From an uncultured Planctomycetaceae bacterium (GTDB taxonomy: Bacteria; Planctomycetota; Phycisphaerae; SM23-33), in contig CAZHEH010000007.1 of the NCBI GenBank assembly GCA_964531695.1, positions 34,121-98,120 on the forward strand: a stretch of 64,000 nucleotides of DNA, read 5' to 3'. The position numbers and the translations under genes were made by a program. Below are positions 354-62,451 of the stretch, piece by piece. Below the pieces are notes generated by a model. It worked only from the letters and a program-made list of their open reading frames with translations. It made no database searches and had not been told where the DNA came from. Positions within the stretch are counted from its first letter, which is position 1. Every line of letters begins with the position of its first letter.

Positions 354-425
354 CTGCCGCCACGCCTCGCCGAGATTCCGAAGTATCTGAGCCACAATCC
401 GTCCTCACCGAATGGCCGCGGCGCC

Positions 426-734: not shown

Positions 735-745
735 CTCGAATGCTC

Positions 746-1153: not shown

Positions 1154-1175
1154 GGCTCTCGTCCCGTTCCCGCGC

Positions 1176-6442: not shown

Positions 6443-6458
6443 ATGCAACGGGTGTGCC
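6443..6458 (-). promoter_or_regulatory. Sigma-54 (RpoN) promoter TGGCAC-N5-TTGCA upstream of the flagellar operon
   Basis: Reverse complement of 6441-6460 is GTTGGCACACCCGTTGCATC, a perfect -24 GG / -12 GC consensus about 85 nt upstream of the start at 6359. Confidence 0.5.
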
Positions 6459-6616
6459 AACCTCAGAGAACGGCACACATGAGCCATCTAGGCATGCCCA
6501 GGAGCCGTATGCGTCAATATCTAAGATGTGCTCGGCCGTGTCCCCGAGCGCAGCGTCAGGATTCTTGCGCCCGCGGCGCTTGCTTTTCGGACACTCCGCC
6601 GTCCCGGCCGGGGGAT

Positions 6617-32170: not shown

Positions 32171-32226
32171 GCCGCTGCGCCGTTTGCCCTTGCCGATTCC
32201 GGCCGTGCGCGGGATAATCCCCGGCC

Positions 32227-33300: not shown

Positions 33301-33812
33301 TGAAATTGACGATGACGTGTTCTATTGTGTTTATTGTGGCGACCATGCTGATTGGGTGCGACACGGGGCATGTTGAGCCATGCGAGAGATGCTCATCTCC
33401 GCAGGCGTTAATGTCGGCGTTGTATCACAAATTTGAGTCAGAGGAGTATCCTGATCTTGAGTCCCTGATTCATCCCCGACTACGTGGGCAGTGGAAGGAG
33501 TTTGTCTATTGGGACGGCCGAATTAGGCGCGAATTCCCGAAGGCTCTCGGCACAGAATACACAAGTCCGATAGATAACCTTCGAGAAGAAGTATGCCATG
33601 GGAAGGGGCAGTGGAAGATCGAAGCACAGAGGGATCTGGCGCGTGTGAGGATCGGAGAGTCAGGCACTTCACTGGTTCTCAGAAGACATTACGGGCAATG
33701 GTACATCGTGCTATATGAAACCTGGGAAGTCGCTGAGTATATGTCGCGATTGAGGAAGGAAATCTCGAAGGTAGAGTATCACAGACTAAGCGATATGAAT
33801 CGCAGGGACTAA
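33294..33812 (+). CDS. Lipoprotein, candidate immunity protein for the Rhs lipase toxin
   Basis: MKLTMTCSIVFIVATMLIGC lipobox. It overlaps the toxin gene's 3' end and has low GC like the toxin. Confidence 0.45.
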   Translation: MVMKLTMTCSIVFIVATMLIGCDTGHVEPCERCSSPQALMSALYHKFESEEYPDLESLIHPRLRGQWKEFVYWDGRIRREFPKALGTEYTSPIDNLREEVCHGKGQWKIEAQRDLARVRIGESGTSLVLRRHYGQWYIVLYETWEVAEYMSRLRKEISKVEYHRLSDMNRRD

Positions 33813-33816
33813 CAAC

Positions 33817-33837
33817 GTGTCCAGTCCGTAGGGACAC
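33817..33837. terminator. Hairpin GTGTCC-N9-GGACAC directly after the immunity gene stop (terminator-like, no clear U-tract)
   Basis: Read from the sequence. It shares the GGGACAC core with the inverted repeats at 34022 and 34299. Confidence 0.3.
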
Positions 33838-34021
33838 ATAGTTAGCCCGCATTATTCGTGAAGCTGCGCGAAACGCACGATTGTGACGGGTTTTGGCATG
33901 CCGTCGAGGCGAGAGGGGTGGCTGAGGCGCGGCGAGGCGGCGGAAGGGAGCAATCGGCGGCGCTGAGAGGCCAACATCCGCCCCGACCCGTGGCGGAATC
34001 TTGGGAATCTTGGAATCTCGC

Positions 34022-34317
34022 TTGGGACACCATACGGTTTTTTGCTTGCGTGGAGATGTAATAGCGGTAGGATGTTTTGCATGCCGAGACTCGCACGAGC
34101 AGTGATTCCGGGCCGGCCCCACCACGTCACGCAGCGCGGCAACCGTCGCCAGCAGACGTTTTTCGGCGAGGACGACTATCGCGCGTACCTGTCGCTGCTG
34201 GGCCGGTGGTGCGCGGCGCACGAACTGCGGGTATGGGAAGCTGCTGGGCCGCCCCCTCCTGCCCGGCCGACCCGGTCGGCCTCGTACGCGAGAGAAACAA
34301 ACCGTATGGTGTCCCAG
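34022..34317. mobile_element. Degenerate REPtron-like element: 19-bp perfect inverted repeats TTGGGACACCATACGGTTT (34022-34040) and AAACCGTATGGTGTCCCAG (34299-34317) flanking a truncated RAYT/IS200-like transposase fragment
   Basis: The inverted repeats were read from the sequence. The enclosed ORF begins MPRLARAVIPGRPHHVTQRGNRRQQTFFGEDDYRAYLSLL, the conserved N-terminus of REP-associated tyrosine transposases, but it lacks the HuH and catalytic Tyr regions. A GGAATCTTG x3 tandem repeat lies just upstream (33997-34020). Confidence 0.5.
34081..34260 (+). pseudogene. Truncated REP-associated tyrosine transposase (IS200/IS605-like TnpA) N-terminal fragment
   Basis: Only about 50 aa of homology. 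The downstream track ORF continuation is unrelated sequence. Confidence 0.5.
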
Positions 34318-34514
34318 GATAACAGGATAACCATGAAGGAAGAGATCACATGTGACGCGGCTGGGAACTTGCAAGTGCCACCCGAGGCCGTATCGTGTAC
34401 CGGGAAGAAGTGTTCTGGGGATGCGACGTCCTCGCCGAAGGAGTAGTTATGATTATCAGCTATGCCTGTGTGGCAGTTTGTGACAGACCATCAATGGATG
34501 TGCCTCGTACAAGA

Positions 34515-35231
34515 ATGCGCCGGCACGGTCTCGCAATGCCCGCAGGACCGCTCCAACTTCGCCTGGTTCTGCTGATTGGGGCGGCTCTCTGTCTTGGCTT
34601 GCACGGCTGCTCGGACACGCGAGATGGTAGCCGCCGCGCTGGAGGTACAGAGCCGAAGAGGCCTGCTTCTGCCCAAGAACAGGCGGTTGCGGAAACGCCG
34701 ATGTTAACCGGCCTAGAGATTTGGGAACCGGAGGGCGCGAGTGTCGAAGGGCGGCCATCGCAATCAGGCCAGCTCACTGTGGCGCAGCTTGCCCAGGAAA
34801 CGCTGCTTGACCTGAGCGATGATGGGGCCTCAGTCGTGGCCAATCCCAAAATATCATTCAGCGTTACGAAGAAATCGGCCGAACAAAGGGTGTGGCTGGA
34901 GATCGTCATGCGTGTTCCGACTGGGGAGCCATTTTCGGATGATAAGGTGTATTGGCTTGCCTCTCGGAATATTGGCAAGGTGTACTTGGCAGGTGGGTCA
35001 CGCGGCCCGAGCGGACTCCCTTACCGTGTTGAGGAAACGATCAGAATACACACAAAGCTTGGCCGCGCTGGTACGGATGTGAAGCGCTTCACGGAAGCCA
35101 ACGGCGTCATTTGCGGATCATTGTACGGACGGTCAATGAAGCCGAATGGGCATGGGGCCTGCCTGTTGGCAAGCTTCACCATCCCAATCGCCGCACCGGA
35201 CCGCACGTGGGGGAACAATGTGGTCGAGTAG
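34515..35231 (+). CDS. Secreted / lipoprotein-like hypothetical protein (low-GC island)
   Basis: MRRHGLAMPAGPLQLRLVLLIGAALCLGLHGC signal region; start uncertain among 34395/34515/34533. Confidence 0.4.
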   Translation: MRRHGLAMPAGPLQLRLVLLIGAALCLGLHGCSDTRDGSRRAGGTEPKRPASAQEQAVAETPMLTGLEIWEPEGASVEGRPSQSGQLTVAQLAQETLLDLSDDGASVVANPKISFSVTKKSAEQRVWLEIVMRVPTGEPFSDDKVYWLASRNIGKVYLAGGSRGPSGLPYRVEETIRIHTKLGRAGTDVKRFTEANGVICGSLYGRSMKPNGHGACLLASFTIPIAAPDRTWGNNVVE

Positions 35232-35552
35232 CGCGTGCAGGCATCGGGGGGAAAGGGGACCGGCAGCGGCCGGAGGCGCCGCCGGAGTGTCGTCTCCGAA
35301 ATAGGGCCCTTCTTCAATCTTGTTGGTGGACTGAATGCTTGAAACAACGCTCAACCTCTGCTTGTTCAATGGGTTGTCACGCCTCATCGATCGGCAGGAG
35401 GTTGAGCCAGGTATGTGCACGGCATTCGTGCGTTGTTTCACTGTGAAGGGCACGTCGTCCGGAAGATTACGATGAACAGCGACATTGTCCAGCGAAGCGC
35501 GACGCAGTCATTGAATGGCATCGCCTGAGGGCGCTCCCGTCTTGCGGGGCGG

Positions 35553-45508: not shown

Positions 45509-47092
45509 CTACGCCAACTCGCCGATCCGCTCGCGGCGAATGGCCTCGGCCGCCGCTTCGTCGATGATCCGCAGGCGGGCCGGTCCTCCCTCGGCCGGGC
45601 AGACCACCACGGCCGCCAGGGTCCGCGAGAGGGGCCACGGCTCCAAGCCCATCGCCAGCAGTTCGCCGACGGCCTCGGCGGCGTCCGCCGCCCGCACCAC
45701 CGCCACCACCGAAGCGCCTTCGCGAGCCGCCTCGAACGCCTCCAGCGCCGTACCGGGGTCGCGCAGGTCCTCGACGCAGACCAGATCCGCGTCCTGCCCC
45801 ATGGCCGCGGACATCGCCTCGGCATATGCCAGCCCGTTCCGCCCGCCGGTCGGGACGTCGTCGGCCTCCTCGCCGGCCACCCCCGCCTGGCGCCCGAGCA
45901 CCAGCACGCTGCACCCCGCGGCCGCCGCTTCGCCCGCCAGCGAGCACAGCAGGGCCCGGCGCCCGCTGCGCGCCGGCCCGGCCAGAACGACCCAAACGCC
46001 GCCGCCGGTCAGCAGCTCCATGAGCCGCGCGCGGTCCACCGCGCTCAGAGCGGCTCGTGCGCCGGCCCCGTCCATCGGGCGGAGGCGCAGAACCAGGCGC
46101 GGGCCCCGAGCCGTCGGGCATGTCGCCACGGCCGCGTAATAGGACGTATCCCCGTGACGTACTTCCATCATTCCCTCGGCCGGTCGCTCCAGCGCCTCGG
46201 CGTCCAGGCCGGCGCGCCCCGCCAGCCGTTCCAGAATCGCCCGGTCCAGCCCCGCGGGCAGACGGGCGGCGAAGCCCGGCTTCTCCCGCAGCACGCCATC
46301 CACGCGAAGGCGGAGCGACAGCCCCTCTTCGCGCGGCTCGAAGTGTACGGCCGTGGCGTGCTTGGCCAGGGCATCCGCCAGCACCGCCTCGATGACCTGG
46401 TCGGCCCGAGCCGGGCAGGCGTCGTCGGCCTCCGGCTCGTCGGCCTCGTGGGGCCCGGCCTCGTTGAGTTCGGCCTCTTGGGGATGGGCCTCCGGGGTAG
46501 TCCTGGGCTCCGGCTCGGGCACCGGCCGAAGCTCGACCTCCAGCTCGTCAAACGCCGGCTCCGCTTCCGGCATTGGGCTCGGCCGCGGCTCGTCTGCCCC
46601 GGACGGCTCCGGGCCGGCCTCGTGTGCGGCCGGCGTTTCGGGCTCGGGCTCCGCCTCGGGCTGCGGCTCGGGCTCGTAGCGGCCCTCATCCGGCTGCGGA
46701 TCGATCGGCTCGGGCTCGACCGGCTCGCGCCCATCCGGCCGGGCCGGCTCGGAATCCGCCACGTCCGGCTCCCACGACTCCGCCTCGCTCGGCGGCTCGC
46801 CCGCCGGCCGACTGGCGATCCGCCGGGCCAGCAGCTTCCGCGCCCGGCGGGCCGATGCCTCTTCGTCCTCCGGCTCGGACGCGGGCTCGACCCTCGCCCC
46901 GGCCATAAGCTCCGCCAGGTCCACGCCGCGGTCTCGGAGGAACCCCACGAGCGATTGCTCGGAGATTCGGATGGCCCCGTCCGGCATGCGACGCACCGGC
47001 AGCCAGCCCTTCTGGATCCACTCGACCACCGTGCCGGGCGTCTGCCCGAGCAACTCGGCGATTTGGTAAGTCGTGAAGGTACGCTGGGACAT
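45509..47092 (-). CDS. Fusion protein: N-terminal MerR/excisionase-type HTH, Pro/Glu-rich linker, then a C-terminal GspE/PilB N-domain-like region with a degenerate Walker A (pseudo-ATPase)
   Basis: MSQRTFTTYQIAELLGQTPGTVVEWIQKGWLPVRRMPDGAIRIS (HTH). About 200 aa of PE-rich low complexity. Then VIEAVLADALAKHATAVHFEPREEGLSLRLRVDGVL (T2SSE_N-like) and GVWVVLAGPARSGRRALLCSLA, which is GxxxxGRR rather than GKT. Confidence 0.5.
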   Translation of the reverse strand: MSQRTFTTYQIAELLGQTPGTVVEWIQKGWLPVRRMPDGAIRISEQSLVGFLRDRGVDLAELMAGARVEPASEPEDEEASARRARKLLARRIASRPAGEPPSEAESWEPDVADSEPARPDGREPVEPEPIDPQPDEGRYEPEPQPEAEPEPETPAAHEAGPEPSGADEPRPSPMPEAEPAFDELEVELRPVPEPEPRTTPEAHPQEAELNEAGPHEADEPEADDACPARADQVIEAVLADALAKHATAVHFEPREEGLSLRLRVDGVLREKPGFAARLPAGLDRAILERLAGRAGLDAEALERPAEGMMEVRHGDTSYYAAVATCPTARGPRLVLRLRPMDGAGARAALSAVDRARLMELLTGGGVWVVLAGPARSGRRALLCSLAGEAAAAGCSVLVLGRQAGVAGEEADDVPTGGRNGLAYAEAMSAAMGQDADLVCVEDLRDPGTALEAFEAAREGASVVAVVRAADAAEAVGELLAMGLEPWPLSRTLAAVVVCPAEGGPARLRIIDEAAAEAIRRERIGELA

Positions 47093-47256
47093 CGAGGGCC
47101 TCCGGTCTCCCGTCGGGGGCATTGTCCCACCCCCCCGCCGATCCGTCAACCGGGCCCACGGCCGGGCTTGTAAGGGGGCGAGGCAGCGGCTATGCTCGAT
47201 GTTTCGGCGCGGCGGGACAAGTCGTGCCGTCAACCCGAACGAGAAGGAACCTACCC

Positions 47257-48357
47257 ATGCGGATTGCGGTAATCGGCGGAGACGGGACCGGACCGGAAGT
47301 GGTGGCCGAGGGGCTGAAGGTGCTCCGGGCGGTCGCGGCGAAGGTCGGCTTCGAATACGAGACGAAGGACTTCAACGTCAGCGGCGATCGATACCTCGCC
47401 GCGGGCGGCGACCCGAACGTCGCCTCGATGCCTATCGTCAGCGAAGAGGAGATCGACGAGCTTCGCGGCTACGACGCGATCTACCTCGGCGCGGTCGGCC
47501 ACCCGGACATCGCCCCCGGCATCCTGGAGAAGGGCCTGCTGCTGCGGCTGCGCTTCGCGCTGGACCAGTACATCAACCTTCGCCCGGTGAAGCTCTACCC
47601 CGGCGTCGAGACCCCGCTGGCGGGCAAGGGCCCGGAGGACATCGACTTCGTCGTCGTCCGCGAGAACACCGAGGGGCTCTACACGGGCATGGGCGGCAAC
47701 CAGTACCAAGGCACCGCCAACGAGGTCGCCACGCAGGTGATGTGCAACACGCGCCACGGCGTGGAGCGGGCGATTCGCTACGCCTTCGAGCTGTGCAAGC
47801 GGCGGAACGACAAGGGGCGGCTGACGCTCGTCGGCAAGACGAACGTACTGACCTTCGCCCATGGGCTGTGGTACCGCGCCTTCTGCGAGATCGGCGAGGA
47901 ATACCCCGACATCGAGAAGGACTACAACCACGTCGACGCCTGCTGCATGTGGTTCGTCAAGAACCCCGAGTACTACGACACGATCGTCGTGTGTAACATG
48001 TTCGGGGACATCATCACGGACCTCGGCGCGATGATTCAGGGCGGAATGGGCGTGGCCGCGGGCGGGAACATCAACCCCTCCGGCGTGTCGATGTTCGAGC
48101 CCATCGGCGGCTCGGCGCCCAAGTACACCGGGCAGAACGTCATCAACCCGGTCGCGGCGATCGCCTCGCTGGCCATGCTGCTGCGCGAGACGGGGCAGAA
48201 CACGGGCGAAGCCAAACTCATCGACGCCGGCGACCGCGTCGAGGCCGCCATCATGGCCGTCACCCCCAAGATGGACAGCCAGTCCGCCAAGGGGATGGGC
48301 TACTCGACCACCGAGGTCGGCGACCTGGTCGCCCAGGCCGTGACGGACGCGGAATAG
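47257..48357 (+). CDS. Isocitrate / isopropylmalate dehydrogenase family enzyme (LeuB-like, 366 aa)
   Basis: MRIAVIGGDGTGPEV…NLRPV…GSAPKY motifs of the beta-decarboxylating dehydrogenase family. Confidence 0.75.
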   Translation: MRIAVIGGDGTGPEVVAEGLKVLRAVAAKVGFEYETKDFNVSGDRYLAAGGDPNVASMPIVSEEEIDELRGYDAIYLGAVGHPDIAPGILEKGLLLRLRFALDQYINLRPVKLYPGVETPLAGKGPEDIDFVVVRENTEGLYTGMGGNQYQGTANEVATQVMCNTRHGVERAIRYAFELCKRRNDKGRLTLVGKTNVLTFAHGLWYRAFCEIGEEYPDIEKDYNHVDACCMWFVKNPEYYDTIVVCNMFGDIITDLGAMIQGGMGVAAGGNINPSGVSMFEPIGGSAPKYTGQNVINPVAAIASLAMLLRETGQNTGEAKLIDAGDRVEAAIMAVTPKMDSQSAKGMGYSTTEVGDLVAQAVTDAE

Positions 48358-48449
48358 GCAACGGCGAGGGGAGGCGTCCCGGCGCCGGCAACTCGACCGG
48401 GCGCATCCCGACTCCCACGGATGGGTAAGCCACCCGCGCCCCGCACGGA

Positions 48450-48791
48450 TCAGCTTGCCGCCGCGTAGGCCGCCAGGCCCGGCCGGCTGCGGCGGAGGCG
48501 CTCGAGCCGCTCCGCCAGCTCGCTCTGGTGTTGAGCCAGGGCCAGGCCCAACTCGCGCTGGAGCTTGCCGATGCGCTCCGCCTGCGCCTCGCAGCCGGAC
48601 GGCGGGCCGTCGAGCTGCCGCAGGTGCTGCGTGCACTGTCGCACGGCCGCATCGAGCGCAGAGAGCGCCTCGTACCGGCCCTTGCGGGCGAGGGCGAGCT
48701 GCTTGGTCAGCACAGTCTCGACCTGTTCAAGCACTCGGGCCGGATCGGCAGGCGGTTCCGGCACGGCATGTTTGTCTTGGGGTTGGGTCAT
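48450..48791 (-). CDS. Small helical hypothetical protein (113 aa), last gene of the glycosyltransferase/TPR operon; possible FlgN-like chaperone
   Basis: MTQPQDKHAV…LTKQLALARKGRYEALSALDAAVRQCTQHLRQL. ATGA-coupled to the upstream TPR gene. Confidence 0.35.
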   Translation of the reverse strand: MTQPQDKHAVPEPPADPARVLEQVETVLTKQLALARKGRYEALSALDAAVRQCTQHLRQLDGPPSGCEAQAERIGKLQRELGLALAQHQSELAERLERLRRSRPGLAAYAAAS

Positions 48792-49439
48792 CGGTTGGCG
48801 GCTCCGGCGGTCTGGCATGCGGCGAGGCGGCGCTCGACGTCGGCGAGCAACTCGGTCGCCTCCTTCTTGTCCGGCTCGAGCGCGAGCACGCGGCGCAGGA
48901 CCTCGGCGGCGTCCTCGAACCGTTCTTCCTTCACGTAGAGCGAGCTGAGGCAGAACAGCACGCTCGTGTCGCCCGGGTGCTTGTCCAGGTACAGCTCCAG
49001 GAACTGGATCACCTTGCCGAAGGTGCCCATCTGGCACGAGGTCTGGAAGAGCCCCAGCAGCGCCGAGAGATTGTCGACGTCCAATTCGAGGCACGTCAGG
49101 TACATCTCGAAGGCCTTGGCGTACTCGGCCTTCTGCTGGTAGACCATCGCCAGCCCGCCGTAGGCCTCGGCGCAATTCGGGTCGAGCCGCTTGGCCGTGC
49201 TGAAGGCCGCCAGCGCGTCGTCGGACCGGCCGTCCTGGATCGCCAGCACCCCGAGCCCGACGTGCGGCTGGGCCTTATTCGGCGCCAAGTCGAGGGCGCC
49301 GAGGTAACACTCCCGGGCCCGGCCGCCGTCGCCGAGGCCGGCGTAGCAGTCGCCCATTTCCTTCATCACCTCGTAGTGCTGGTCGAGGACGTTGTCCGGC
49401 TGTCCGGACTGGCGCTTGTTCGAAGTCTCGGGTTTCACT
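48788..49439 (-). CDS. TPR-repeat protein
   Basis: Tandem TPR helices (AYGGLAMVYQQKAEYAKAFEMYLTCLELD…). Probable GTG start with a GGAAGG RBS. Confidence 0.5.
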
Positions 49440-51000
49440 GGGGAACCTTCCAATCCAGAATCTTCTTGGCCTGTTGCAAACGCTGGAGCGCCTCGCCCAG
49501 GCGGTCGGACCGCCGGTGCAGCTTGGCCTCCAGCAGCAGCGTGGCTGGGGTGGGTCGTTCCTGGTTGACGGTGCGGCAGAGCTTCATGGCCTCGTCGTCG
49601 GCCGGTCCGCCGGCGTTGTACAGCGCCTGAATCGTCTGTCGCTGCATCCACGTGTCGTTCCGGAAGCGGCGGCGGCATTCCTGATACACATCGGCCGCCC
49701 GTAGCCAGTCGCCGTCGCCTTCGGCCCGGATCGCCTCCCGCATGACGTCGTCGAAACGGAACGGCAACTCCTCGTATTCCGGGTTCCGCACGGTGACGCC
49801 CGAGGCCTGTACGCTCCGCCGGACACTCAAGCCGGGCCATCGCCGGCGGGCCCGGATGAGCGTCTCGCGGTCGATCACGGCCGCCCAGCGATCCGGGCGG
49901 CAGCCGGGGATGCGGAACGCCTGATTCGCGTCGCCGCAGTTGATCAGGGCATGCAGCGGCCGCTCGATGAACATGTCGCCCACCGGCATTCCGCCCGGAA
50001 GGACCGCGACGTAGTCCCCCTCGCAGCGGGCCAGGGCGGCATCGACCCGCGCCTCGTGCGGCATGTCGGTCGGCACGGGCACCAACACGACGTTCGGCAT
50101 GCCGGAGGAGATCGACGCCTGCTCGTAGTCCGGAAGGGCCAGATACACCTGGTACGGCATGAAGCCGTAACGCCAGATGCCCTTGAGCTGGTTGATGACC
50201 GTCGCGTCCAGATGCGGCGGTGCGTGCAGGATGGAAAGGTCCGGCACCTTCGCCCACGGCTTGGGCGGGCGGGCCGTCTTGATGCGCAGCGTGTTGTGCA
50301 GGTACTTGTTCTGGTCCTCCCGCTCGCGCGTCGAGATGCGGTCCTTCTTGTTGACCGTCACGCAGAACTCACCCGTCACGGCCGGGACGTGCAGGAAGTC
50401 GCTGTAGAACGCGATTCTCCGGTTCAGGTCCCACTCGATCATCACCCGGACCTTCTCGTTGTACGGGCCCGTCCGGTCTAGGATCTCCCGCGTGTGCATC
50501 AAGCTCACGTGCAGGACCTGGTTGATGTAGAACTCGAAGTAACGGTCATAGTCACGGCTGATCGACACGTGCTTGCTGAGTACCCGCCTGGAGCCGTCGG
50601 GCTCGACGCGCACGTTCATCTGGTACAGGTCGCTGTAGGCCAGGTGGTACTCGGGGTTGCGCTCCAGGGCGTCCACAAGCGTCCGGACGTGGTTCGGGTA
50701 GTGGATGTTGTCGTCGAGATAGCAGATGTACTTGCCCGAAGACAGCCCGATCGCCTCGTTCAGCGAGGCGGCCTTGCCCTTGGTCTCCGCCCGCTGGTGG
50801 AGCTTGACGCGCGGATCGCCCGCCGCCTCGACGATGTCGGCCACGTTCTCCCCGCCGTCGTTGACGAGGATCACCTCCAGGTTCGGGTAGTCCTGCGTCA
50901 GCGCGCTGCGCAGGGCGTCCGGCAGGTACTGCCGCCGGTTGTACGTGCAGATGATTACGCTTACCCGCGGCGTCTGCCGGCTGTCGGCGAGGTTAATCAT
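49435..51000 (-). CDS. Family 2 glycosyltransferase with extended C-terminal domain
   Basis: From MINLADSR: VSVIICTYNRRQYLPDALRSALTQDY…ILVNDGG…YLDDN is a GT-A fold with a DxD motif. Confidence 0.7.
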   Translation of the reverse strand: MINLADSRQTPRVSVIICTYNRRQYLPDALRSALTQDYPNLEVILVNDGGENVADIVEAAGDPRVKLHQRAETKGKAASLNEAIGLSSGKYICYLDDNIHYPNHVRTLVDALERNPEYHLAYSDLYQMNVRVEPDGSRRVLSKHVSISRDYDRYFEFYINQVLHVSLMHTREILDRTGPYNEKVRVMIEWDLNRRIAFYSDFLHVPAVTGEFCVTVNKKDRISTREREDQNKYLHNTLRIKTARPPKPWAKVPDLSILHAPPHLDATVINQLKGIWRYGFMPYQVYLALPDYEQASISSGMPNVVLVPVPTDMPHEARVDAALARCEGDYVAVLPGGMPVGDMFIERPLHALINCGDANQAFRIPGCRPDRWAAVIDRETLIRARRRWPGLSVRRSVQASGVTVRNPEYEELPFRFDDVMREAIRAEGDGDWLRAADVYQECRRRFRNDTWMQRQTIQALYNAGGPADDEAMKLCRTVNQERPTPATLLLEAKLHRRSDRLGEALQRLQQAKKILDWKVPQ

Positions 51001-52540
51001 CGGCGCCCCCTTCCCGTCCGGCCGAAGACCCGACCGGCTCGACGCTGCCGGTCCAGGTCCCGTTCTCCTCACCGCGGACCGGATCGGCCTCCAACTCCAT
51101 CAGAAGCTCGTTGATGCGGTCGTGGGTCCGCCGAAGGGAGAACCGCGTCTCGACGAACCGGCGGTACGCCGACGGGTCGAATGTCCCGTCCGTCACGATC
51201 GCCCGGAACTCCTCCGGCGTGCGGAACAGGTGTTCGTCCGGCAGCAGCCCCCGGCTTCCGGGGAAGGCATGCACCACCGGCTTGAGTCCGCGGGCCATGC
51301 CCTCCAGCACGTGCAGCGGAATGCCGTCGAACAGCGCCGTCGAGACGATGTACTGCTTGTCCGCCAGGTAGGCGTCGAGGTCGGCCTGATGTCCATCGAA
51401 GGTGACCCGCCCGGACAGGCCCAGCTCGTCCGCCATCGTCCGCAGGTAGGTCTCCAGGGCGTCGCCGCGGATCGATCCCGCCACGTGAAGCGAGTACTCC
51501 GCGTCGGCATCGCACAGGACCTTCATGCATTGAAGCAGCAGTGCGGGCCCGGACAGGAAGTCCGGGTCGCCGATGCAGGCCAGACGTTTGCCCGGCTTGC
51601 GCTCGACGAACCTCGCCCCGGCCAGCTCGACCCCGCGGGGACAGTCGATCAGCCGCGTCTTTTCCCCGATACGCGGCACACGTTCCAGGAGTCCGGCACG
51701 CCCGGCCTCGTTCATATTGAGCACGACCGCGTCCACGCGACTCCAGTCCGTGTCGCACAGCATCGGCCCGAACAGGTCGTGCTGGTGCAGCCGGAGAACC
51801 GTTCGCTTGCGCTTGCCCAGGCAACTCACCCGTGCCGCCTGCTCCGTACACGACTCGAACCACGCGATGTCGCACCAGGCGTACCGGTCCAGGACTTCCT
51901 CGTCCTTCGTGCCGTGGAAGACCCGCACCTCGTGCCGCGGCTCCAGAAAACGCCGCAGGGCATCGGCGTACACCGCCAGCGCCGGCGGGTAGAACAGCGC
52001 CACCTTCGCCCGGGTCCGGCGGATGTTCTTGAGGATCGGCTCGAGGATCTTCTGCTGGTCCGGCGCCATCTCCATCGAACGGAGCAGCGCTTCCATTCCG
52101 CGTCCGGCCTTGCCCGCCTCGATGAATGCCGTGGCCGTGCGGTTCACGAGGTCCGGGTTGAGCAATTCCTCGGCGGCGAGTCGGTCAAACAGGGACAGCG
52201 CCTCGTCCGGTCGCCCGGCGGCAAGATGCACCTCCACCAGGTTCCACAGGGTCTCGGGGGCCCCGTCGGGCAAGTGCTCCAGCGCCTGGCGCAGGTGCTC
52301 GGCCGCCTCGTCGAACCGTCCGAGGGTGTACAGCAGCGCGCCGGCGTCGTTGAGGGCCTGCCCGTCCCTGGGCTGCTGACAAAGGTGCTCGCGGAGGCAC
52401 TCCAAGGCCTCCTCGTGCTTGCCGGCCTCGGCGAGTTCGAGGCCTCGCTGATAGGCGGATTGCGGCTGCGATGGATCGGTCACGATGCCATCCTTCCTGT
52501 CGAGTTCCGCTCGTGCGGCCGGGGCGCGGGGACGCACCAC
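50993..52540 (-). CDS. TPR-domain plus GT1/GT4-type glycosyltransferase fusion (flagellar-locus glycosyltransferase)
   Basis: N-terminal TPRs (AYQRGLELAEAGKHEEALECL…), then a GT-B C-terminal domain (…DGIPLHVLEGMARGLKPV…). The start is uncertain; a GTG at about 52483 with an AAGGA RBS is possible. Confidence 0.6.
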   Translation of the reverse strand: MVRPRAPAARAELDRKDGIVTDPSQPQSAYQRGLELAEAGKHEEALECLREHLCQQPRDGQALNDAGALLYTLGRFDEAAEHLRQALEHLPDGAPETLWNLVEVHLAAGRPDEALSLFDRLAAEELLNPDLVNRTATAFIEAGKAGRGMEALLRSMEMAPDQQKILEPILKNIRRTRAKVALFYPPALAVYADALRRFLEPRHEVRVFHGTKDEEVLDRYAWCDIAWFESCTEQAARVSCLGKRKRTVLRLHQHDLFGPMLCDTDWSRVDAVVLNMNEAGRAGLLERVPRIGEKTRLIDCPRGVELAGARFVERKPGKRLACIGDPDFLSGPALLLQCMKVLCDADAEYSLHVAGSIRGDALETYLRTMADELGLSGRVTFDGHQADLDAYLADKQYIVSTALFDGIPLHVLEGMARGLKPVVHAFPGSRGLLPDEHLFRTPEEFRAIVTDGTFDPSAYRRFVETRFSLRRTHDRINELLMELEADPVRGEENGTWTGSVEPVGSSAGREGGADD

Positions 52541-52556
52541 GGCCTTGTCGTGGTGA

Positions 52557-52573
52557 TTGCAAATCCTGTGCCG
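52557..52573 (-). promoter_or_regulatory. Sigma-54 promoter-like element GGCAC-N5-TTGCA upstream of the TPR-glycosyltransferase operon
   Basis: Reverse complement of 52557-52573 reads CGGCACAGGATTTGCAA (GG-N10-GC spacing is exact). Confidence 0.45.
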
Positions 52574-52730
52574 CTCGGCCGGATGACGTATTCCGCCGCG
52601 TTCGGCCCGCCCAAAGGCCGCACGGGCCGGGGCGGGGCCCCAAATTCCGACGTCGGCCGGAATTCCGGCCGCCGGCCGTCAAGATATCGTGCGCGTCTGC
52701 GCCAAAATGCTGTCCGGCCGGAATCGTCTT

Positions 52731-54152
52731 TCAGATGAAATCCAGCAGGGACAGCGACAGCAGTTTGGACGCGCTGGCGAGGGTCATCTGGTACAGCGTC
52801 TGGGTCCGGGCGAGATCGACCGCCACCTGCGCGATGTCCGCGTCGGACAGCCGGCTCCGTTCCATCTTCGATTCGCTCTGGAGGCCCTCCAGCGAGTTCT
52901 GGAGCTTGTCCATCGCCGACAGCCGGGCGCCGATGGTGGTCATGCTCTCGGTAACGGCGGCCGTAACCTCGTCCAGCGATTCCAGGGACCGCTCCATGAA
53001 GTCCTGCCGCGTGTCGCGGTCCATCTCGACGTCGTTGGCCAGCGCGTCGCGGATCTGGATCAGCGAGTCGAAGACGTCGTAGGTTCCCGGCACGCGGACG
53101 GGCTCGACGCCCTCGCGGCGGATCCCGGTCGTGTCCAGGTTCAGCACGCGGCCCGACTCCCCGTCCGTGACGGCGAGCTCGGCGGCGAAGTCGTCCACCG
53201 GGGTCGTGGTCGCCCCGCCGTCGACCGAGGCCGTGCCGGTTCCCGTAATCGTGACGGACTCGTCCAAGCCGGACCAGCCGGAGACGTCCACGTGGACGAC
53301 GTCGCCGTCCGCGTTGGTCACCTCGACATTCGTCTGGCCGGGGGTGAACGTGACGGCCGGGCCGCCGTCCAACTGGATCTGCCGGCCCGAGGCGGTGACG
53401 GTGAGCGTATGCTCGCCGAGGATCGTGTCCTCATCCGCGGAGTCGTCGCCCGCGGCCAGGCCGTGCGCGCCGGCGGCGTAGTCGGTGGCGGTGTGCGTCA
53501 GTGCCAGCCACACGTCGCCCTGTACGGAATGCGTCGCATCGCCGCCGGCCGCCCCGGTCTTGCCGAGGAAGGTCGGGTCCTGACGGTTGTCGGAGCGGAA
53601 GATCTCCTCGCCGACGAAGATCCCCGCCTGCTCGACGCCCTGACCGACGGGCACGGGCATCTCCAGATGGCTGCCTTGGTACGACACGCTTACGATCTTT
53701 CCGTCCGCGTATTCGGCGACGTACGGCTTCACGCCGGGGCTGGCCCCGCTGAAGACGTATCGGCCCATGCTCTTGTGGTTCGCCAGCGCAACCGTCTGCT
53801 TGAGCAGAGCGCTGATCTCCTCGGAGATCGCGCGCTTGTTGCTATCGTTGAGCGTGCCGTTGACGGCCTGGGTGAGCAGCTCCTGTACGCGGGCCAGCCC
53901 GGAGCTGACCTGCTCCAGGGAGTTCGACGCCTCGCCCATGCTCTGGACCACGGAGTGAAGGTTCTCGACGTAGCTGGCCAGCGTCGCCGATTCCGTGCCG
54001 AGGTACAGAATGCGATTGGCGTCGCTCGGATCGTCCGAGACGCGCGTGACGCGTGAGCCGGTCGACGCCTGGCGCTGAAGCTCGGCCATGCGCGCCGAGT
54101 GCGTCCGCATCGAGAACGTCGTCGAGTTGTAGATGGAACCCCATCCGCTCAC
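52731..54152 (-). CDS. flgL: Flagellar hook-associated protein 3 (hook-filament junction) FlgL
   Basis: Flagellin-family N-terminus (…RMAELQRQASTGSRVTRVSDDPSDA) and C-terminus (…DADIAQVAVDLARTQTLYQMTLASASKLLSLSLLDFI). Confidence 0.8.
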   Translation of the reverse strand: MSGWGSIYNSTTFSMRTHSARMAELQRQASTGSRVTRVSDDPSDANRILYLGTESATLASYVENLHSVVQSMGEASNSLEQVSSGLARVQELLTQAVNGTLNDSNKRAISEEISALLKQTVALANHKSMGRYVFSGASPGVKPYVAEYADGKIVSVSYQGSHLEMPVPVGQGVEQAGIFVGEEIFRSDNRQDPTFLGKTGAAGGDATHSVQGDVWLALTHTATDYAAGAHGLAAGDDSADEDTILGEHTLTVTASGRQIQLDGGPAVTFTPGQTNVEVTNADGDVVHVDVSGWSGLDESVTITGTGTASVDGGATTTPVDDFAAELAVTDGESGRVLNLDTTGIRREGVEPVRVPGTYDVFDSLIQIRDALANDVEMDRDTRQDFMERSLESLDEVTAAVTESMTTIGARLSAMDKLQNSLEGLQSESKMERSRLSDADIAQVAVDLARTQTLYQMTLASASKLLSLSLLDFI

Positions 54153-54174: not shown

Positions 54175-56142
54175 CTAGAGCAACTGGGCCAGCATGTCCA
54201 GCGCGTCCTTCTGCGTGTTCATGAACTTCGCAACCCCCTGGAACATCTGCTCGTAGACCAGAAGCTTGGCGGCTTCCTCGTTGACATCGACGCCCCCGAT
54301 TTCGTCCCGCCGCTGCTCGAGCTGGCGCATCACGGCCTCCATCCCCTCGAGACGGGACTCCCGGACCGCGACCGACTGCCCCACGCCCGTGACCATCTCG
54401 CGGTACGCGTCCGAGGGTGTGAGGTCCCCCAGCGCCGTCAACGTCGTCTCCGACAAGTCCGCCATGCGATGCACGTTGATGTTGTCCGTCATGTCGCCGC
54501 TGGAGGCCACGGCCAGCCGGGCCGGGTCGTCCTGCAGCTCCTGCCGGACGCCGAGCGTGGTGGCGGAGTTCCCGCTGAACAGCGTGTTCATGCCCGCCGC
54601 CGCCAGCAGCCCGCTCGTGTCCGTCTCGGCCAGGGCGAGGATCGAGAAGCTCTCGGTGTCCGTCACCGTTCCGACGGGCATCGAAACATAGAGCCCGTTG
54701 CCGATGTTGATCGGATCGCCGGGGGCGTAGCCCGAGCCGATATTCACCGTGTCGAGCAACTCGCCCGCGCCGTTGCGGACCTCCAGCGAAAGATCGCCGG
54801 TTCCGACCGTGCCGTCGCCGTCGACGGTTACGGTGAGCGTGTCGTTCGATTCGCCCGTGTAGACGCCCGAGGCGACGGGCTCCGACGTGCCCGTCCAGCC
54901 GCCGGAGATGTCCGCCAGCGGGGCGGGCAGGAAGTCGAAGGTGAAGGTCTGGTCGTCGACGCTCTCGATCCGCAGTGCCCCGGCCGTGACCCTGGCGGTC
55001 AGCGCCGCGTCCCCGTCGGCGTCCGTCAGCCCGTCCAGGGCCGTGGCCACGTCCGAGAGAGTCTGGCCGGTCGTCACGTCGATCTTGTGCCGGACGATCT
55101 TGCCCGTGCTCTCGTTCGTCACGCGGAGGTGGAACGAGCCGTCCTGGATGCCCGCGTTCCACTCGCTGAACGCCTCGGAGGCCGAGGGCACGCCGGTCAG
55201 GTCCGTGAAGGCCCCGCGGGCGCCCACGCCCTGGGCATGCAGCTTGTTGATCTCCGTGGCGAGGGTCGACGCGAGCGTGTCGAGCTGGTTCTGAACGTTC
55301 GGGATGATCTCGTTGTACAGGGCGAACAGCCCGCCGAGCTTGCCGCCGTCGCAGCTCGTGGAGTAGTTCCCGGCGCCGCGGGCCGCCACGCCGAGCTTGT
55401 CGCCGCTGGTGATCGCCACGTCCAGCGCGGTCGTGATCGTGCTGATGGCCAGCGGCGTGCCGACCGACAGGACCGAGACCGACCCCTCGTACGAGCCGTC
55501 GTAGCTGACCTCCATCTCGATGAGCTTGCCGAGGTCGGCCAGGGCTTGGTCCCGCTTGTCCAGCAGCACGTTCGGATTCCCGCCGCGGACGTTCATCGTG
55601 TGGATCTCGCTGTTGAGCGAGGCGATCTCGGCGGCGAGCGTGTTGACGTCCTCGACCCGGTTCCGTGCCTCGACGGCCACCTGCCGCCGCAGCCCCTCGA
55701 TGAACCGCCCGACGCGGCGGAACTCTGTGGTCAGCGAGTGGGCGGCCCAGACCGCCTGGTTCTGGAGCGGCTGGCTGTTGGGCTGGGCGGACAGCTCCCG
55801 CAGCGCGCCGAAGAACGTGTCCAAGGCCGTGCCGAGACCCTCGGCGTCCAGCTCGCCGAAGACGCTCTCCAGCGTCTTGAGGGTCGTCAGTTCCCGCTCC
55901 ACTTGGCCGTGCTGGGGCTGTTGCCCGACGATCTCGGCCTCCAGCAGCGCGTCGGCGGCGCGCTGGATGTCCACCACCTCGACGCCGAGGGGCTCCTGCA
56001 TCGTCTCGCCGAAGGCGACCGGCGCCAGACGCAGGTCCTGGCGGTGGTAGCCCTCGGTCGCGGCATTCGAGATGTTCGTGCCGACCAGGGAGATCGCCCG
56101 CTGGGCGACCTCGAGTCCGGTAAGTCCGATTGACCAGTTCAT
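54175..56142 (-). CDS. flgK: Flagellar hook-associated protein 1 FlgK
   Basis: MNWSIGLTGLEVAQRAISLVGTNISNAATEGYHRQ N-terminus and conserved C-terminus (…LLVYEQMFQGVAKFMNTQKDALDMLAQLL). Confidence 0.85.
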   Translation of the reverse strand: MNWSIGLTGLEVAQRAISLVGTNISNAATEGYHRQDLRLAPVAFGETMQEPLGVEVVDIQRAADALLEAEIVGQQPQHGQVERELTTLKTLESVFGELDAEGLGTALDTFFGALRELSAQPNSQPLQNQAVWAAHSLTTEFRRVGRFIEGLRRQVAVEARNRVEDVNTLAAEIASLNSEIHTMNVRGGNPNVLLDKRDQALADLGKLIEMEVSYDGSYEGSVSVLSVGTPLAISTITTALDVAITSGDKLGVAARGAGNYSTSCDGGKLGGLFALYNEIIPNVQNQLDTLASTLATEINKLHAQGVGARGAFTDLTGVPSASEAFSEWNAGIQDGSFHLRVTNESTGKIVRHKIDVTTGQTLSDVATALDGLTDADGDAALTARVTAGALRIESVDDQTFTFDFLPAPLADISGGWTGTSEPVASGVYTGESNDTLTVTVDGDGTVGTGDLSLEVRNGAGELLDTVNIGSGYAPGDPINIGNGLYVSMPVGTVTDTESFSILALAETDTSGLLAAAGMNTLFSGNSATTLGVRQELQDDPARLAVASSGDMTDNINVHRMADLSETTLTALGDLTPSDAYREMVTGVGQSVAVRESRLEGMEAVMRQLEQRRDEIGGVDVNEEAAKLLVYEQMFQGVAKFMNTQKDALDMLAQLL

Positions 56143-56145
56143 GCG

Positions 56146-56664
56146 CTACGACTCCGTGTCCACCAGGCCGGTGTGCGGGCGCCAGGACTCGCGCCCGGAC
56201 GTGCCGTAGGTGGTCACCGGCGTGCTGGCGGGGAAGAGCGTCTCCATCAGCTCGCGGTTAACGCGGGCGCACTCGGTGAGCAGCATGGCCGTGCGGATGT
56301 GCTCGCGGCGAACGTCCTCAACGAGGACCATGATCCGCCGCCGGCGCCACTCGATCCGCCCGCGGTCCTCGCCCGAGAGGCGGTCGATCAGGCGGCTGAG
56401 GCGCAGCTCCGAGGCGTCGCAGGCGAAGCACGCGGCCAGGGCGCGCCGCGCGTGCCGCAGCCGGCGGTCCGTGGCGGCCTGTACCTGCTGAAGCTGCTCC
56501 ATCTCCGCCAGGAGGCGCTCCATCGGCTCGTCGTCGCGAGCCGCGATGGCGCCGGCCAGCTCGCGGAGCTGCCCGTGCCGGCGGGTCAGCAGGGCGATCT
56601 CCTCGTCCAGCACGTCGGCGAGATTCGCCACGAGCCCCGATAGCGTGGGTCCGCTCGGCATCAT
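56146..56664 (-). CDS. flgN: FlgN-like flagellar export chaperone (probable)
   Basis: 173-aa helical protein immediately upstream of flgK. Start MMPSGPTLSGLVANLADVLDEEIALL. Confidence 0.5.
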   Translation of the reverse strand: MMPSGPTLSGLVANLADVLDEEIALLTRRHGQLRELAGAIAARDDEPMERLLAEMEQLQQVQAATDRRLRHARRALAACFACDASELRLSRLIDRLSGEDRGRIEWRRRRIMVLVEDVRREHIRTAMLLTECARVNRELMETLFPASTPVTTYGTSGRESWRPHTGLVDTES

Positions 56665-57014
56665 AGGGATTGCTCCACGGCCGGCGGCTCGGGCTCCTGC
56701 CCGCCGCCGTATTCGTTGTAGACGTCCTTCCACAGGCCCAGCCCGCCCTTGTCCGCCAGATCCTGCGAGAGGTACATCCAGAACATGTCCTGCATCTGCT
56801 TCGTCACGCCGCTGGACAGGAGCCCCGAGTCGGGGATCGTCCGCTTCATCTCTTCCATCAGACGGCCGAGCAGGACGGACTCGAAGTCCTTGGCGGCCTC
56901 GCTCGCCTTGGCGCGCTGCGCGGCGGCCTGGGCCAGCGACTGCTGCGCCGCGGCCAGCGGGTCGGGCACGTTCCGGGACGAGATCGGGTCGATGGGAAAG
57001 TCGATTCCGCTCAT
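56661..57014 (-). CDS. flgJ: Rod-binding protein (FlgJ N-terminal domain-like)
   Basis: …AKASEAAKDFESVLLGRLMEEMKRTIP…MFWMYLSQDLADKGGLGL matches the Rod_binding family. There is no muramidase domain. Confidence 0.65.
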   Translation of the reverse strand: MSGIDFPIDPISSRNVPDPLAAAQQSLAQAAAQRAKASEAAKDFESVLLGRLMEEMKRTIPDSGLLSSGVTKQMQDMFWMYLSQDLADKGGLGLWKDVYNEYGGGQEPEPPAVEQSL

Positions 57015-60606: not shown

Positions 60607-61317
60607 CTACGCCATCAGGACCTTCAGAATCTGGCCCATTCGCTCGTCCTGTTTGGAAATCATCTTCATGTTCGCCTGGTAGAGGCGGGTGATCTGGATC
60701 AGGTCCACCAACTCCCGGACCGTCGAGACGTTCGACCCCTCCTGGAAGCCGCTGCTGACGGTCGCCTCCGTCGCCGCGGTCGGGCTGGCCGTGTCCGGCG
60801 CGGAGAAGCAGCTCGCCCCGACGGCCGTCAGGACCGACGGATCCTCGAACCGCACGATCTGAAGCCGGCCGATCGCCTGGCCCGCGGCCGTGACCTGCCC
60901 GTCGCGACCGATCCCGATCTGTGAGGGCGACACCGACTCCGGCAGCACGATCACCCCGCCCACGCCGGCCACGAGCCGCCCGGCTCCGTCCACGAGCTGC
61001 CGGCGATCGTTCGGGCGGAACACGCCGCTCCGGGTGTACACCCGCCCGCCGGGAACGTCCGGCGTCTCGACGACGAAGAAACCGTCGCCCGAGATCGCCG
61101 CGTCCAACGGGCGCCCGGTGTGGACGAGCCGGCCCTGGCTGAAGTCCACGGCCGGGGCGGCGACCACCGGGCTGCCGGCACCGTTCCCGGCCTCTCTGCA
61201 CGCGGCCAGCCGCCGCTTGAAGCCGGGCGTGGCGGCGTTGGCGAGGTTCTCCGTCGCCGTCCGGAACTGGTGGCTCAGCGACTCGATGCCACTGCTTGTG
61301 CTGATCGGTATGCTCAT
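60607..61317 (-). CDS. flgF: Flagellar basal-body rod protein FlgF
   Basis: MSIPISTSSGIESLSHQFRTATENLANAATPGFKR…VRELVDLIQITRLYQANMKMISKQDERMGQIL. Confidence 0.75.
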   Translation of the reverse strand: MSIPISTSSGIESLSHQFRTATENLANAATPGFKRRLAACREAGNGAGSPVVAAPAVDFSQGRLVHTGRPLDAAISGDGFFVVETPDVPGGRVYTRSGVFRPNDRRQLVDGAGRLVAGVGGVIVLPESVSPSQIGIGRDGQVTAAGQAIGRLQIVRFEDPSVLTAVGASCFSAPDTASPTAATEATVSSGFQEGSNVSTVRELVDLIQITRLYQANMKMISKQDERMGQILKVLMA

Positions 61318-62435
61318 GCGTCACTCGGCTCGGCCGATGGGGCCGCGGCGCCGGTCTGGGCGGCGTTCGTCGCCCGCACCAGCTCGGCGATTTGCTCGTG
61401 GTTCAGGCCGGTCAGTTCGACGGCCAGCACGGCCTTGCCGTCCTCGTTGTGCATCACGCGGTGCACCGTGCCGACCGCCTGGAGCTTCCGCTCCGCGTCG
61501 AGCTGCACGACGGCCAGGATGTTCTGGCCCGCGCGGGCTTCCAGGTCCGTCTCGAGCCGCATGCCCGGCCCGGCGATCTCCACCACCGTCCCCGGAACAA
61601 ACTGCGGGGCGTCCGAGGCGTCCGCCGCTTCCACGCCCGCCATGCCCGCCAACTGAGCCGGCCGTTCCGTCGGCACGCGCGGGAAGCGCCGCCGGTTGAT
61701 GTAGCGGAACCGCGACGGGCGGTTCAGAACGAAGCGGTTCCGCTCCCGCCGCAGCACCGAGGCATCGAACTCCCACACCGTGCCGCCGTTGGGATACCGG
61801 ACCAGCCAGCTCTCGCCCGGCTCGGTCGAGACCGTCGGACCGTCCGATTCGATGACCAGCTCGCGCTCGGTGACCTCCCGAATCGTGCCGGTGAAGTCGC
61901 CGCCGCGCCCGCGATGCACGACTGCGACCTGCCCGCCCGCCTCCAACGTCTCATACGCCCGCGGCGCTGCGGCGGCCGCGACGGGGGCGGCCGTCCGGAG
62001 GCCGAGCTTTTCCCGGAGCGACTCGGCCGTGGTGAGGACGCTCTCCTGCTGCTCGGTCGGCAGCGCGCGGAAGGCGCGGGACTCCACGTAGCCGGACAGC
62101 CCCCGAGCGAACGCCACCTGCGAGGTCAGCACGATGGTGGGGTCGCTCAGGCCGGCCTGCCGCGTGACCCGCCAGGCCAGGCCGGCCTCGTCCTCGGTCA
62201 GCCCGAGCCGTTCGGCGGGCCCGTCGAGCGCCCGCCGCCCGCGGCGGAGCAGCACGCTCCGGCCGACCAGCAGCGCCACCGACCCGAGCACGAGCAGGCC
62301 CAGCACGGCGATCAGCGCGACCCACAGCCACCAGCCGCCGGCGTCGCTGGGCATGTTCTGGGCGGCCTCGAACCGCTCGACCGCGTTCAGGACCGAGAAG
62401 GGCGAGGCCGGATCCGTTGTGACCGGAACGTTCAT
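61314..62435 (-). CDS. Membrane-anchored PilZ-domain protein (YcgR-like candidate c-di-GMP receptor) between flgE and flgF
   Basis: N-terminal TM helix (WWLWVALIAVLGLLVLGSVALLV), an RRRFPR (RxxxR) motif and a downstream beta-barrel-like C-terminus. Confidence 0.45.
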   Translation of the reverse strand: MNVPVTTDPASPFSVLNAVERFEAAQNMPSDAGGWWLWVALIAVLGLLVLGSVALLVGRSVLLRRGRRALDGPAERLGLTEDEAGLAWRVTRQAGLSDPTIVLTSQVAFARGLSGYVESRAFRALPTEQQESVLTTAESLREKLGLRTAAPVAAAAAPRAYETLEAGGQVAVVHRGRGGDFTGTIREVTERELVIESDGPTVSTEPGESWLVRYPNGGTVWEFDASVLRRERNRFVLNRPSRFRYINRRRFPRVPTERPAQLAGMAGVEAADASDAPQFVPGTVVEIAGPGMRLETDLEARAGQNILAVVQLDAERKLQAVGTVHRVMHNEDGKAVLAVELTGLNHEQIAELVRATNAAQTGAAAPSAEPSDA

Positions 62436-62451
62436 GTCGTCTCAGCGTTTC

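Follow-up and report, generated by a model that had tools for sequence, protein, structure and literature searches.

What do the four genes that follow the hook-associated protein genes flgK and flgL in a flagellated planctomycete of the class Phycisphaerae contribute to the flagellum, and what switches them on? We examined these genes, called A to D here, in a stretch of 64,000 nucleotides (nt) of its DNA (the window). An earlier note on this DNA had described A as a fusion of tetratricopeptide repeats (TPR) to a GT1-type glycosyltransferase (GT), B as a GT2 enzyme with a large extension, C as a TPR protein and D as a protein of 113 amino acids (aa), all coupled by short overlaps. Profile matches confirmed this content, an independent gene call, made on a public contig of identical sequence, gave the same four products (496, 521, 216 and 113 aa), and overlaps of 8 nt (A/B), 4 nt (B/C, GTGA) and 4 nt (C/D, ATGA) make the genes one unit. 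The operon had been placed immediately upstream of flgL-flgK, which is the wrong direction: A to D lie on the minus strand and are transcriptionally downstream of both genes, with a 247-nt gap between flgL and A. We propose that A to D form a sigma-54-dependent operon for the cytoplasmic glycosylation and chaperoning of exported flagellar proteins, and we put the probability of this statement as a whole at about 0.6.

The promoter region between flgL and gene A

Sigma-54 recognizes the consensus TGGCAC-N5-TTGCW, in which the GG and GC doublets are the contact bases. The gap between flgL and A contains CGGCACAGGATTTGCA, which fits this consensus at 10 of the 11 specified positions, the sole mismatch being T to C at the first. 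The match and its exact GG-N10-GC spacing had been reported before, and both are present, although the coordinates given then (52557-52573) were one base too long. The pattern GGCAC-N5-TTGCW occurs twice in the window against 0.12 copies expected, and none of 100 shuffles reached two; both copies are intergenic, each upstream of a flagellar operon. Looser versions of the pattern occurred at chance frequency. The longest open reading frame (ORF) of A begins at GTG 52540, 18 nt past the -12 element. However, the independent gene call placed the start at GTG 52483, 90 nt behind the -24/-12 element, with the ribosome-binding site AGGAAGGA 8 nt upstream and with homologue N termini in agreement, which bears out the expectation of a downstream GTG start for the first gene. 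Sigma-54 transcripts usually start about 12 nt downstream of the GC, and from this geometry the transcription start of A is predicted near 52548. Folding of the resulting leader was not exceptional (z = -1.7).

We scanned one genome per species for relatives (265) and kept 80 loci. The homologues of A were full length at about 40% identity, and the named ones belong to Sedimentisphaerales, Phycisphaerae or Planctomycetota, including Anaerobaca lacustris. The order flgI-flgJ-flgN-flgK-flgL-A-B-C was kept in essentially all loci with enough sequence; this synteny and the FliT/FlgN-like character of D uphold the tie to the hook-associated protein locus that the note had drawn. A -24/-12 element with no more than two mismatches was found on the coding strand within 600 nt upstream of A in 76 of the 80 loci (7 perfect, 55 with one mismatch and 14 with two), with GT in place of GC at -12 in 9 loci. 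The other four were one locus without upstream sequence, one with a three-mismatch version and two (L015 and L050) without the element. Across the 1.12 Mb of loci, searched on both strands (2.2 Mb), there were 71 matches with at most one mismatch, and 53 of these stood within 400 nt before A on its own strand, with two more at -472 and -521. The sigma-54 contact bases were invariant across loci, whereas the N5 spacer and the flanks varied. The start codon followed the first base of the 16-nt element at a distance of 70 to 119 nt in 60 of 75 relatives, giving leaders of roughly 45 to 95 nt. Conservation this far above chance is as predicted for a functional -24/-12 promoter. With the same element on the coding strand before the orthologous gene in so many distant genomes, we regard the sigma-54-type promoter claimed earlier as real: the element is very probably functional and presumably sigma-54 dependent.

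The relatives also revealed a second conserved block, which the earlier note, correct on the promoter, had missed. This is a 17-nt element with the consensus TGTyTGATATTTATACA, a TGT-N11-ACA partial dyad with about 1.6 to 2 bits per position over the 17 nt, and it occurred together with the sigma-54 element in 67 of the 80 genome loci. Spacing, counted from the GATAT core to the first base of the -24/-12 element, was 62 to 65 nt in 51 loci, 72 to 75 nt in 13, 84 to 86 nt in 2 and 106 nt in 1, with no locus between these classes. Vector strength peaked (0.93) at a period of 10.5 bp, and the spacings fit 63 + ~10.5n nt. In the window the element has a high-GC version (GCGCACGATATCTTGACGG, 52693-52675), and its spacing of 115 nt equals 63 nt plus five helical turns. 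Spacing on one face of the helix is a hallmark of sigma-54 upstream activator sites, at which a bacterial enhancer-binding protein (bEBP) acts by DNA looping. The helical phasing therefore suggests that the 17-nt element is a candidate bEBP-binding site. By eye, we compared the 17-mer with the Escherichia coli integration host factor (IHF) site (WATCAANNNNTTR) and the sigma-28 pattern (TAAA-N15-GCCGATAA), neither of which fits, and likewise with sigma-70 hexamers, the FleQ box, the NifA site TGT-N10-ACA, FNR/CRP sites and the NtcA site, again with no fit.

Both elements together were specific enough to retrieve the locus from metagenome contigs. The composite pattern GATATTTATAC-N50-66-GGCAC-N5-TTGC returned 120 stretches, and in a tblastn screen at least 106 of them were the same flgL-to-A or flgL-to-C intergenic region. 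The 14 matches that tblastn did not assign were apparently chance hits in other organisms, except for L113, a flgL locus at a contig end. In two loci (L018 and L046) an extra gene of 630 aa stands between flgL and A, and both elements sit between this gene and A. Because the elements stay with A there, they belong to the promoter of A and not to the end of flgL.

This last result bears on another way in which A to D might be expressed. The -24/-12 match might not be a promoter, with the genes reached by read-through from flgE...flgL and the conserved blocks serving as an RNA 3'-end or stability element of flgL or as a promoter of another type. The minus strand from 48200 to 52900, a range that includes the flgL-A interval, showed no site resembling an intrinsic terminator; the 3' region of flgL folds unusually well, and L050 and L015 keep gene A without the element. 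However, what stays invariant is precisely the set of bases that sigma-54 contacts (GG, and GC or GT, with a spacing of 10 nt). The element was on the coding strand in every case, stood 70 to 119 nt (from its first base) ahead of the start codon in 60 of 75 loci, and goes with A when a gene is inserted. Rfam had no match anywhere in the window. Phasing of the upstream element by helical turns would have no rationale in an RNA element. We consider read-through as the sole source of A to D highly unlikely.

Several other features of this region were seen. The RNA directly after the flgL stop codon (52600-52730, minus strand) folds at -70.1 kcal/mol (z = -3.0) and contains a perfect palindrome, GGCCGGAATTCCGGCC, with no U-tract behind it; it is a candidate 3'-end stabilizer or terminator. 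L050 is a natural promoter-less variant in which a deletion (~2230-2290) fuses the GATAT element to the ribosome-binding site of A, and L015 (~7870-8000) is a natural variant that has neither element and keeps A. An extra gene of 511 to 718 aa lies between flgL and A in L006, L012, L022, L044 and L077 as well as in L018 and L046, and in high-GC loci with such a gene the sigma-54 motif is inside its coding sequence, 190 to 520 nt ahead of A. The leaders of A in one subclade (L045, L053, L058, L064, L072 and L073) share a conserved hairpin, GACC-N7-GGTC with the loop GGGAUGG, followed by AGGAG, which resembles CsrA-type binding sites.

Proteins A to D and their constancy across loci

The catalytic domains of A and B were both modelled as GT folds with high confidence. 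For A, Pfam Glycos_transf_1 matched above its curated cut-off in the window copy and in most homologues, and the model has a GT-B fold. Most homologues have E-x7-E at the EX7E motif of the C-terminal Rossmann domain, and the window copy has D-x7-E (FDGIPLHVLEGMA). Among solved structures, this GT-B domain is nearest in fold to GT4 enzymes with UDP- or GDP-sugar donors, and this speaks against a donor of the sialyltransferase type. In a subclade of A homologues that includes Anaerobaca lacustris (P0063, P0076, P0104, P0106, P0108 and P0116), the second glutamate of EX7E is replaced by A, S or T, and most of this subclade (P0063, P0076 and P0108) has no Pfam glycosyltransferase match. B has a profile match above cut-off (Glycos_transf_2, 1.9e-24), a GT-A fold and a DXD-type motif whose D96 and D97 are invariant in 32 homologues, and it is thus a GT2 enzyme. 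Its model (predicted local distance difference test score, 86.4) adds a second alpha/beta domain (residues 255 to 405) and six C-terminal helices (residues 415 to 516) that are TPR-like.

C and D have weak similarity to chaperones. C, whose start was placed by the switch in GC content at third codon positions (GC3) and by a ribosome-binding site, had a sub-threshold NCBIfam match to SycD/LcrH-type type III secretion chaperones (7e-13). D is presumably helical. Its window copy matched FliT at 0.0035 with 18.6 bits, below the cut-off of 29.5 bits. When 30 homologues were scanned singly against Pfam (E <= 0.1), FlgN was found in 14 and FliT in 11, with a best value of 4.6e-6. A D-like ORF of 103 to 130 aa follows C in nearly all loci, and a bona fide FlgN is already encoded elsewhere in the window (Table 1). 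No hydrophobic stretch fit for a membrane segment was present in any of A to D, so all four are soluble. None of the four had a Pfam match to MAF_flag10/DUF115 at E <= 0.01, and a sequence search of the PDB gave generic TPR and GT2 matches alone.

Because GT4 and GT2 are the usual families of polysaccharide and glycolipid synthesis, and most of the closest solved structures belong to such enzymes, A and B might make a glycan that is not attached to protein at all (a flagellar sheath, an envelope or capsule-like polymer, or a cell-wall glycan near the motor) and be merely coexpressed with the flagellar genes. The lack of an adjacent flagellin gene would also suit such a role. However, none of the four proteins has a membrane segment, and the conserved module is without a flippase, polymerase, lipid-carrier transferase or exporter. 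Both GTs instead bear protein-binding repeats, as known flagellin GTs do (PMC7591256; bioRxiv 10.1101/2023.12.03.569772), and their partner D is chaperone-like. A nonprotein glycan is in our judgment distinctly unlikely, and a function in sheath polysaccharide, which the earlier note had offered as an option, is unlikely given four soluble proteins and a core module with no export or lipid-carrier genes.

We then compared which of the genes remain behind the promoter. C was present in every locus with enough sequence, including loci without A and B. Metagenome loci were chosen by the promoter pattern alone and were counted if flgL preceded the pattern and 4.3 kb or more of sequence followed it (n = 33); 25 had A-B-C, 5 had A-C and 3 had C alone, so 8 of the 33 were without B or without both GTs. 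Among the genome loci, B is absent from L028 and L047. L206 reads flgK-flgL-[CGGCACGAGTTTTGCA]-C-D, with no glycosyltransferase and with a D homologue that is also flagged, weakly, as FliT. Overall, roughly 10 to 25% of loci lack GTs. Since C and D are kept behind the promoter when A and B are not, the pair of TPR and FliT-like proteins is its invariant cargo, with A and B as common accessories. The four-gene content described earlier was right, but it did not show that the GTs are dispensable and C-D constant.

This pattern would also be expected if the locus were a chaperone or assembly module, in which C and D serve late substrates (FliD, FlgK/FlgL or flagellin) and A and B are scaffolds, regulators or pseudo-enzymes. 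The persistence of C-D in the loci that have lost one or both GTs, the subclade of A without the second EX7E glutamate or a Pfam GT match and the SycD/LcrH-type similarity of C all agree with it. However, most homologues of A and B keep their GT signatures and the folds are those of GTs. Furthermore, the genes behind the module often point to sugars: downstream of D, relatives have variable genes, among them NeuB/NeuC-like genes, UDP-GlcNAc 2-epimerase, UDP-glucose dehydrogenase, dehydratases and large GTs; these were recognized by eye in the N termini of the ORFs and not by family search. GTs within a flagellar cluster, joined in relatives by variable sugar genes, have the gene content of a glycosylation island. 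We regard a module of chaperones without glycosylation as unlikely.

Wider sigma-54 context and other features of the window

The second exact sigma-54 match of the window stands ahead of an operon at 3-6359 (minus strand). This operon encodes an 853-aa TPR membrane protein, a secreted TPR-like protein, a response-regulator bEBP (1517-2923; Sigma54_activat, 9.6e-69, with a GAFTGA motif), flgB, flgC, fliE and probably fliF. In four relatives (L203 to L206) the orthologous operon continues through fliF-fliG-fliH-fliI-fliJ-motA-motB, and the sigma-54 motif is kept. A GATAT also lies 62 nt upstream of the 6444-6459 site in the window, and we considered whether GATAT is shared by all flagellar sigma-54 promoters. 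The four relatives, whose promoters keep the -24/-12 motif but have no GATAT, ruled this out, and the GATAT near the 6444-6459 site is probably due to chance or lineage specific.

Other sigma-54 promoters and activators were noted in the relatives. A second bEBP gene is located just upstream of the TPR-response regulator-flgB operon in L203 (2961-4352), L204 (2854-4239) and L206 (3440-4525). It has no clear receiver domain and is in a FleQ/FlrA-like position; in the window, tblastn found no counterpart and matched the response-regulator bEBP alone. One of these three relatives has a sigma-54 motif ahead of fliK-flgD-flgE as well. In L028 (~17231, minus strand) and L078 (~17031, minus strand), a sigma-54 promoter, CGGCACG-N4-TTGCA, precedes a fliO-like membrane protein of about 170 aa, and roughly 70 to 90 nt upstream there is a palindrome, TTGTCAAG-N3-TTCGACAA, in place of the 17-nt element. 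This difference suggests that activator sites are specific to the promoter class. Taken together, the flagellar regulon of the class appears, from these motifs, to be broadly sigma-54 dependent and to involve two or more activators and upstream sites that differ between promoters.

The features of the A-D locus and its flagellar neighbours are collected in Table 1. Upstream on the minus strand the gene order is flgE, a PilZ-domain gene, flgF, flgG, flgA, flgH, flgI, a flgJ-like gene (rod binding), flgN, flgK and flgL, and downstream the A-D unit ends at a plus-strand gene (47122-48357) that is dehydrogenase-like and convergent. The PilZ-domain protein (375 aa; Pfam, 9e-7; 61314-62441, minus strand), between flgE and flgF in the run of rod and hook genes, is a possible cyclic di-GMP input to the motor. 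At 45509-47233 (minus strand), a 574-aa protein has an unusual combination of an N-terminal HTH_17 domain, a long acidic proline-rich linker and a T2SSE (GspE/PilB-type) ATPase. A low-GC island at 32000-35300 (57 to 62% versus about 70%) holds, going by a visual inspection of its translations, an RHS-core-like C-terminal fragment (32227-33300, plus strand), small unannotated ORFs and an ORF resembling a REP-type (RayT-like) transposase (34042-34446, plus strand). No tRNA genes were found in the window.

Table 1. Coordinates of the A-D operon, its control elements and related flagellar features in the window
Feature	Position	Strand	Description
-24/-12 element	52573-52558	minus	CGGCAC-AGGAT-TTGCA = CGGCACAGGATTTGCA; pattern match
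Upstream element, window version	52677-52693	minus	CGCACGATATCTTGACG; GATAT core 115 nt before the -24 element
Predicted 5' leader of A	52484-52548	minus	~65 nt; ribosome-binding site AGGAAGGA at 52498-52491
Gene A	50993-52483	minus	496 aa; TPR (residues 10-156) and GT-B-fold GT4, Glycos_transf_1 (residues 160-470)
Gene B	49435-51000	minus	521 aa; GT2, GT-A fold (residues 13-242; D96-D97-N98), ~280-aa extension
Gene C	48788-49438	minus	216 aa; stand-alone TPR protein; Pfam TPR_2, 8e-21; GTG start
Gene D	48450-48791	minus	113 aa; ATG start; weak FliT/FlgN-type chaperone similarity
flgL	52731-54152	minus	TIGR02550, 1.4e-59
flgK	54175-56142	minus	TIGR02492, 1.9e-84
flgN	56146-56733	minus	Pfam FlgN, 1.3e-8
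Second exact sigma-54 match	6444-6459	minus	TGGCACACCCGTTGCA; ahead of operon 3-6359 (minus)

The proposed module, related systems and meaning

In the mechanism that we propose, sigma-54 RNA polymerase at the -24/-12 element would read a separate unit after flgK-flgL. A bEBP on the 17-nt element, about 90 to 140 nt upstream of the start site, would probably switch this unit on, and the phasing fits DNA looping. The transcript would give four translationally coupled cytoplasmic proteins. The repeats of A (TPR and GT4) and B (GT2 and TPR-like tail) would hold an unfolded export substrate, most likely flagellin, and their catalytic domains would add sugars from ordinary nucleotide-sugars before export. 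C and D would be a pair for the same late substrates that acts either as chaperones or as adaptors between substrate and enzymes; they would form the constant core, and the GTs would be a frequent but dispensable add-on. For the glycosylation of flagellar proteins taken by itself, we think the balance of the evidence leans in favor.

Several observations weigh against this interpretation. With the termini of E. coli FliC as the query, neither the window nor any of the 80 loci (within 8 kb) yielded a flagellin gene, and no sugar-pathway genes adjoin the operon in the window. A and B are absent from loci in which the promoter and C-D persist, and A may be noncatalytic in the EX7E-deficient subclade, so that it would not be an enzyme everywhere. 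The family matches of D are under the Pfam cut-offs. On the regulatory side, rpoN is not in the window, the 17-nt element matched no known activator, IHF or sigma-28 consensus when compared by eye, this element and its GATAT are absent from the four TPR-response regulator-flgB promoters of L203 to L206, and read-through from flgL may contribute to the expression of A to D, as no terminator lies between.

The module as proposed works like the FlmG and Maf systems and is not a demonstrated member of either family. FlmG of Caulobacter crescentus and Brevundimonas subvibrioides binds flagellin through a TPR domain and selects the donor through a GT-B domain (PMC7591256; bioRxiv 10.1101/2022.03.25.485807). 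By architecture A is similar, with N-terminal TPRs and a C-terminal GT-B domain in a soluble, cytoplasmic protein encoded in a flagellar gene set. However, A has 496 aa with a TPR region of about 150 aa, whereas FlmG has 596 aa and about 310 aa, respectively. FlmG transfers pseudaminic or legionaminic acid, whereas the GT-B domain of A is of the GT4/Glycos_transf_1 type, with solved relatives that take UDP- or GDP-sugars as donors, and the window has no nonulosonic acid pathway beside the operon.

Maf-1, known from Shewanella oneidensis and others, joins a GT-A domain to a C-terminal TPR domain, and Maf-2 depends on GlfM, which is encoded downstream of it and is an 89-aa helical FliS/FliT-like adaptor that bridges GT and flagellin (bioRxiv 10.1101/2023.12.03.569772). 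B likewise has a GT-A-fold catalytic domain followed by a C-terminal TPR(-like) domain, and the last gene of the operon, D, is weakly FliT/FlgN-like. In contrast to the Maf proteins, A to D are without MAF_flag10/DUF115 and B is a classical GT2, and the stand-alone TPR protein C has no counterpart in these Maf systems.

In Pseudomonas, glycosylation genes are in the flgL-to-fliD stretch of the flagellar cluster (PMC3927599). The islands of P. aeruginosa PAK and P. syringae (fgt1/fgt2, viosamine) share with this locus a conserved GT core accompanied by variable sugar biosynthesis genes. Here, however, no fliC follows and no flagellin gene is nearby, the GTs have fused TPR domains and a TPR/FliT-like pair beside them, and a conserved sigma-54 promoter with an upstream element belongs to the module itself. 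A precedent for the regulation comes from Helicobacter pylori, in which flaB and jhp0106, a putative flagellin GT, are under RpoN control in the middle/late class (PMC5368276). In both cases a putative flagellin GT is read from a sigma-54 promoter; there the GT is cotranscribed with a flagellin and uses the promoter of that flagellin, whereas here a dedicated promoter with a phased upstream element follows flgL.

The locus is a variation on a known theme and overturns nothing that is known. The searchable literature gave us nothing on either flagellar glycosylation or the control of flagella by sigma-54 in Planctomycetota, and no experimental study of their flagellar hierarchy or flagellin modification. 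A broader idea, which we offer tentatively and think doubtful at present, is that Phycisphaerae own an undescribed four-part system for modifying flagellar proteins, made up of two different TPR-tethered GTs (GT4 and GT2) with ordinary nucleotide-sugars as donors, a free TPR protein and a FliT-like adaptor, with a dedicated sigma-54 promoter and a 17-nt site for a class-specific bEBP, the GT4 protein being a noncatalytic scaffold in some lineages. If true, this would add a new pair of activator and site and a distinct tier of the planctomycete flagellar hierarchy. The clean footprints left by the -24/-12 element and the phased 17-nt site could anchor a reconstruction of the flagellar hierarchy in this phylum and point to the activator. 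The natural variants without one GT, both GTs or the promoter make the roles of these parts open to comparative testing. Finally, a class-wide set with protein-binding repeats on two unrelated GT folds, beside a FliT-like adaptor, offers a comparison with FlmG and Maf/GlfM for how such enzymes recognize their substrates.

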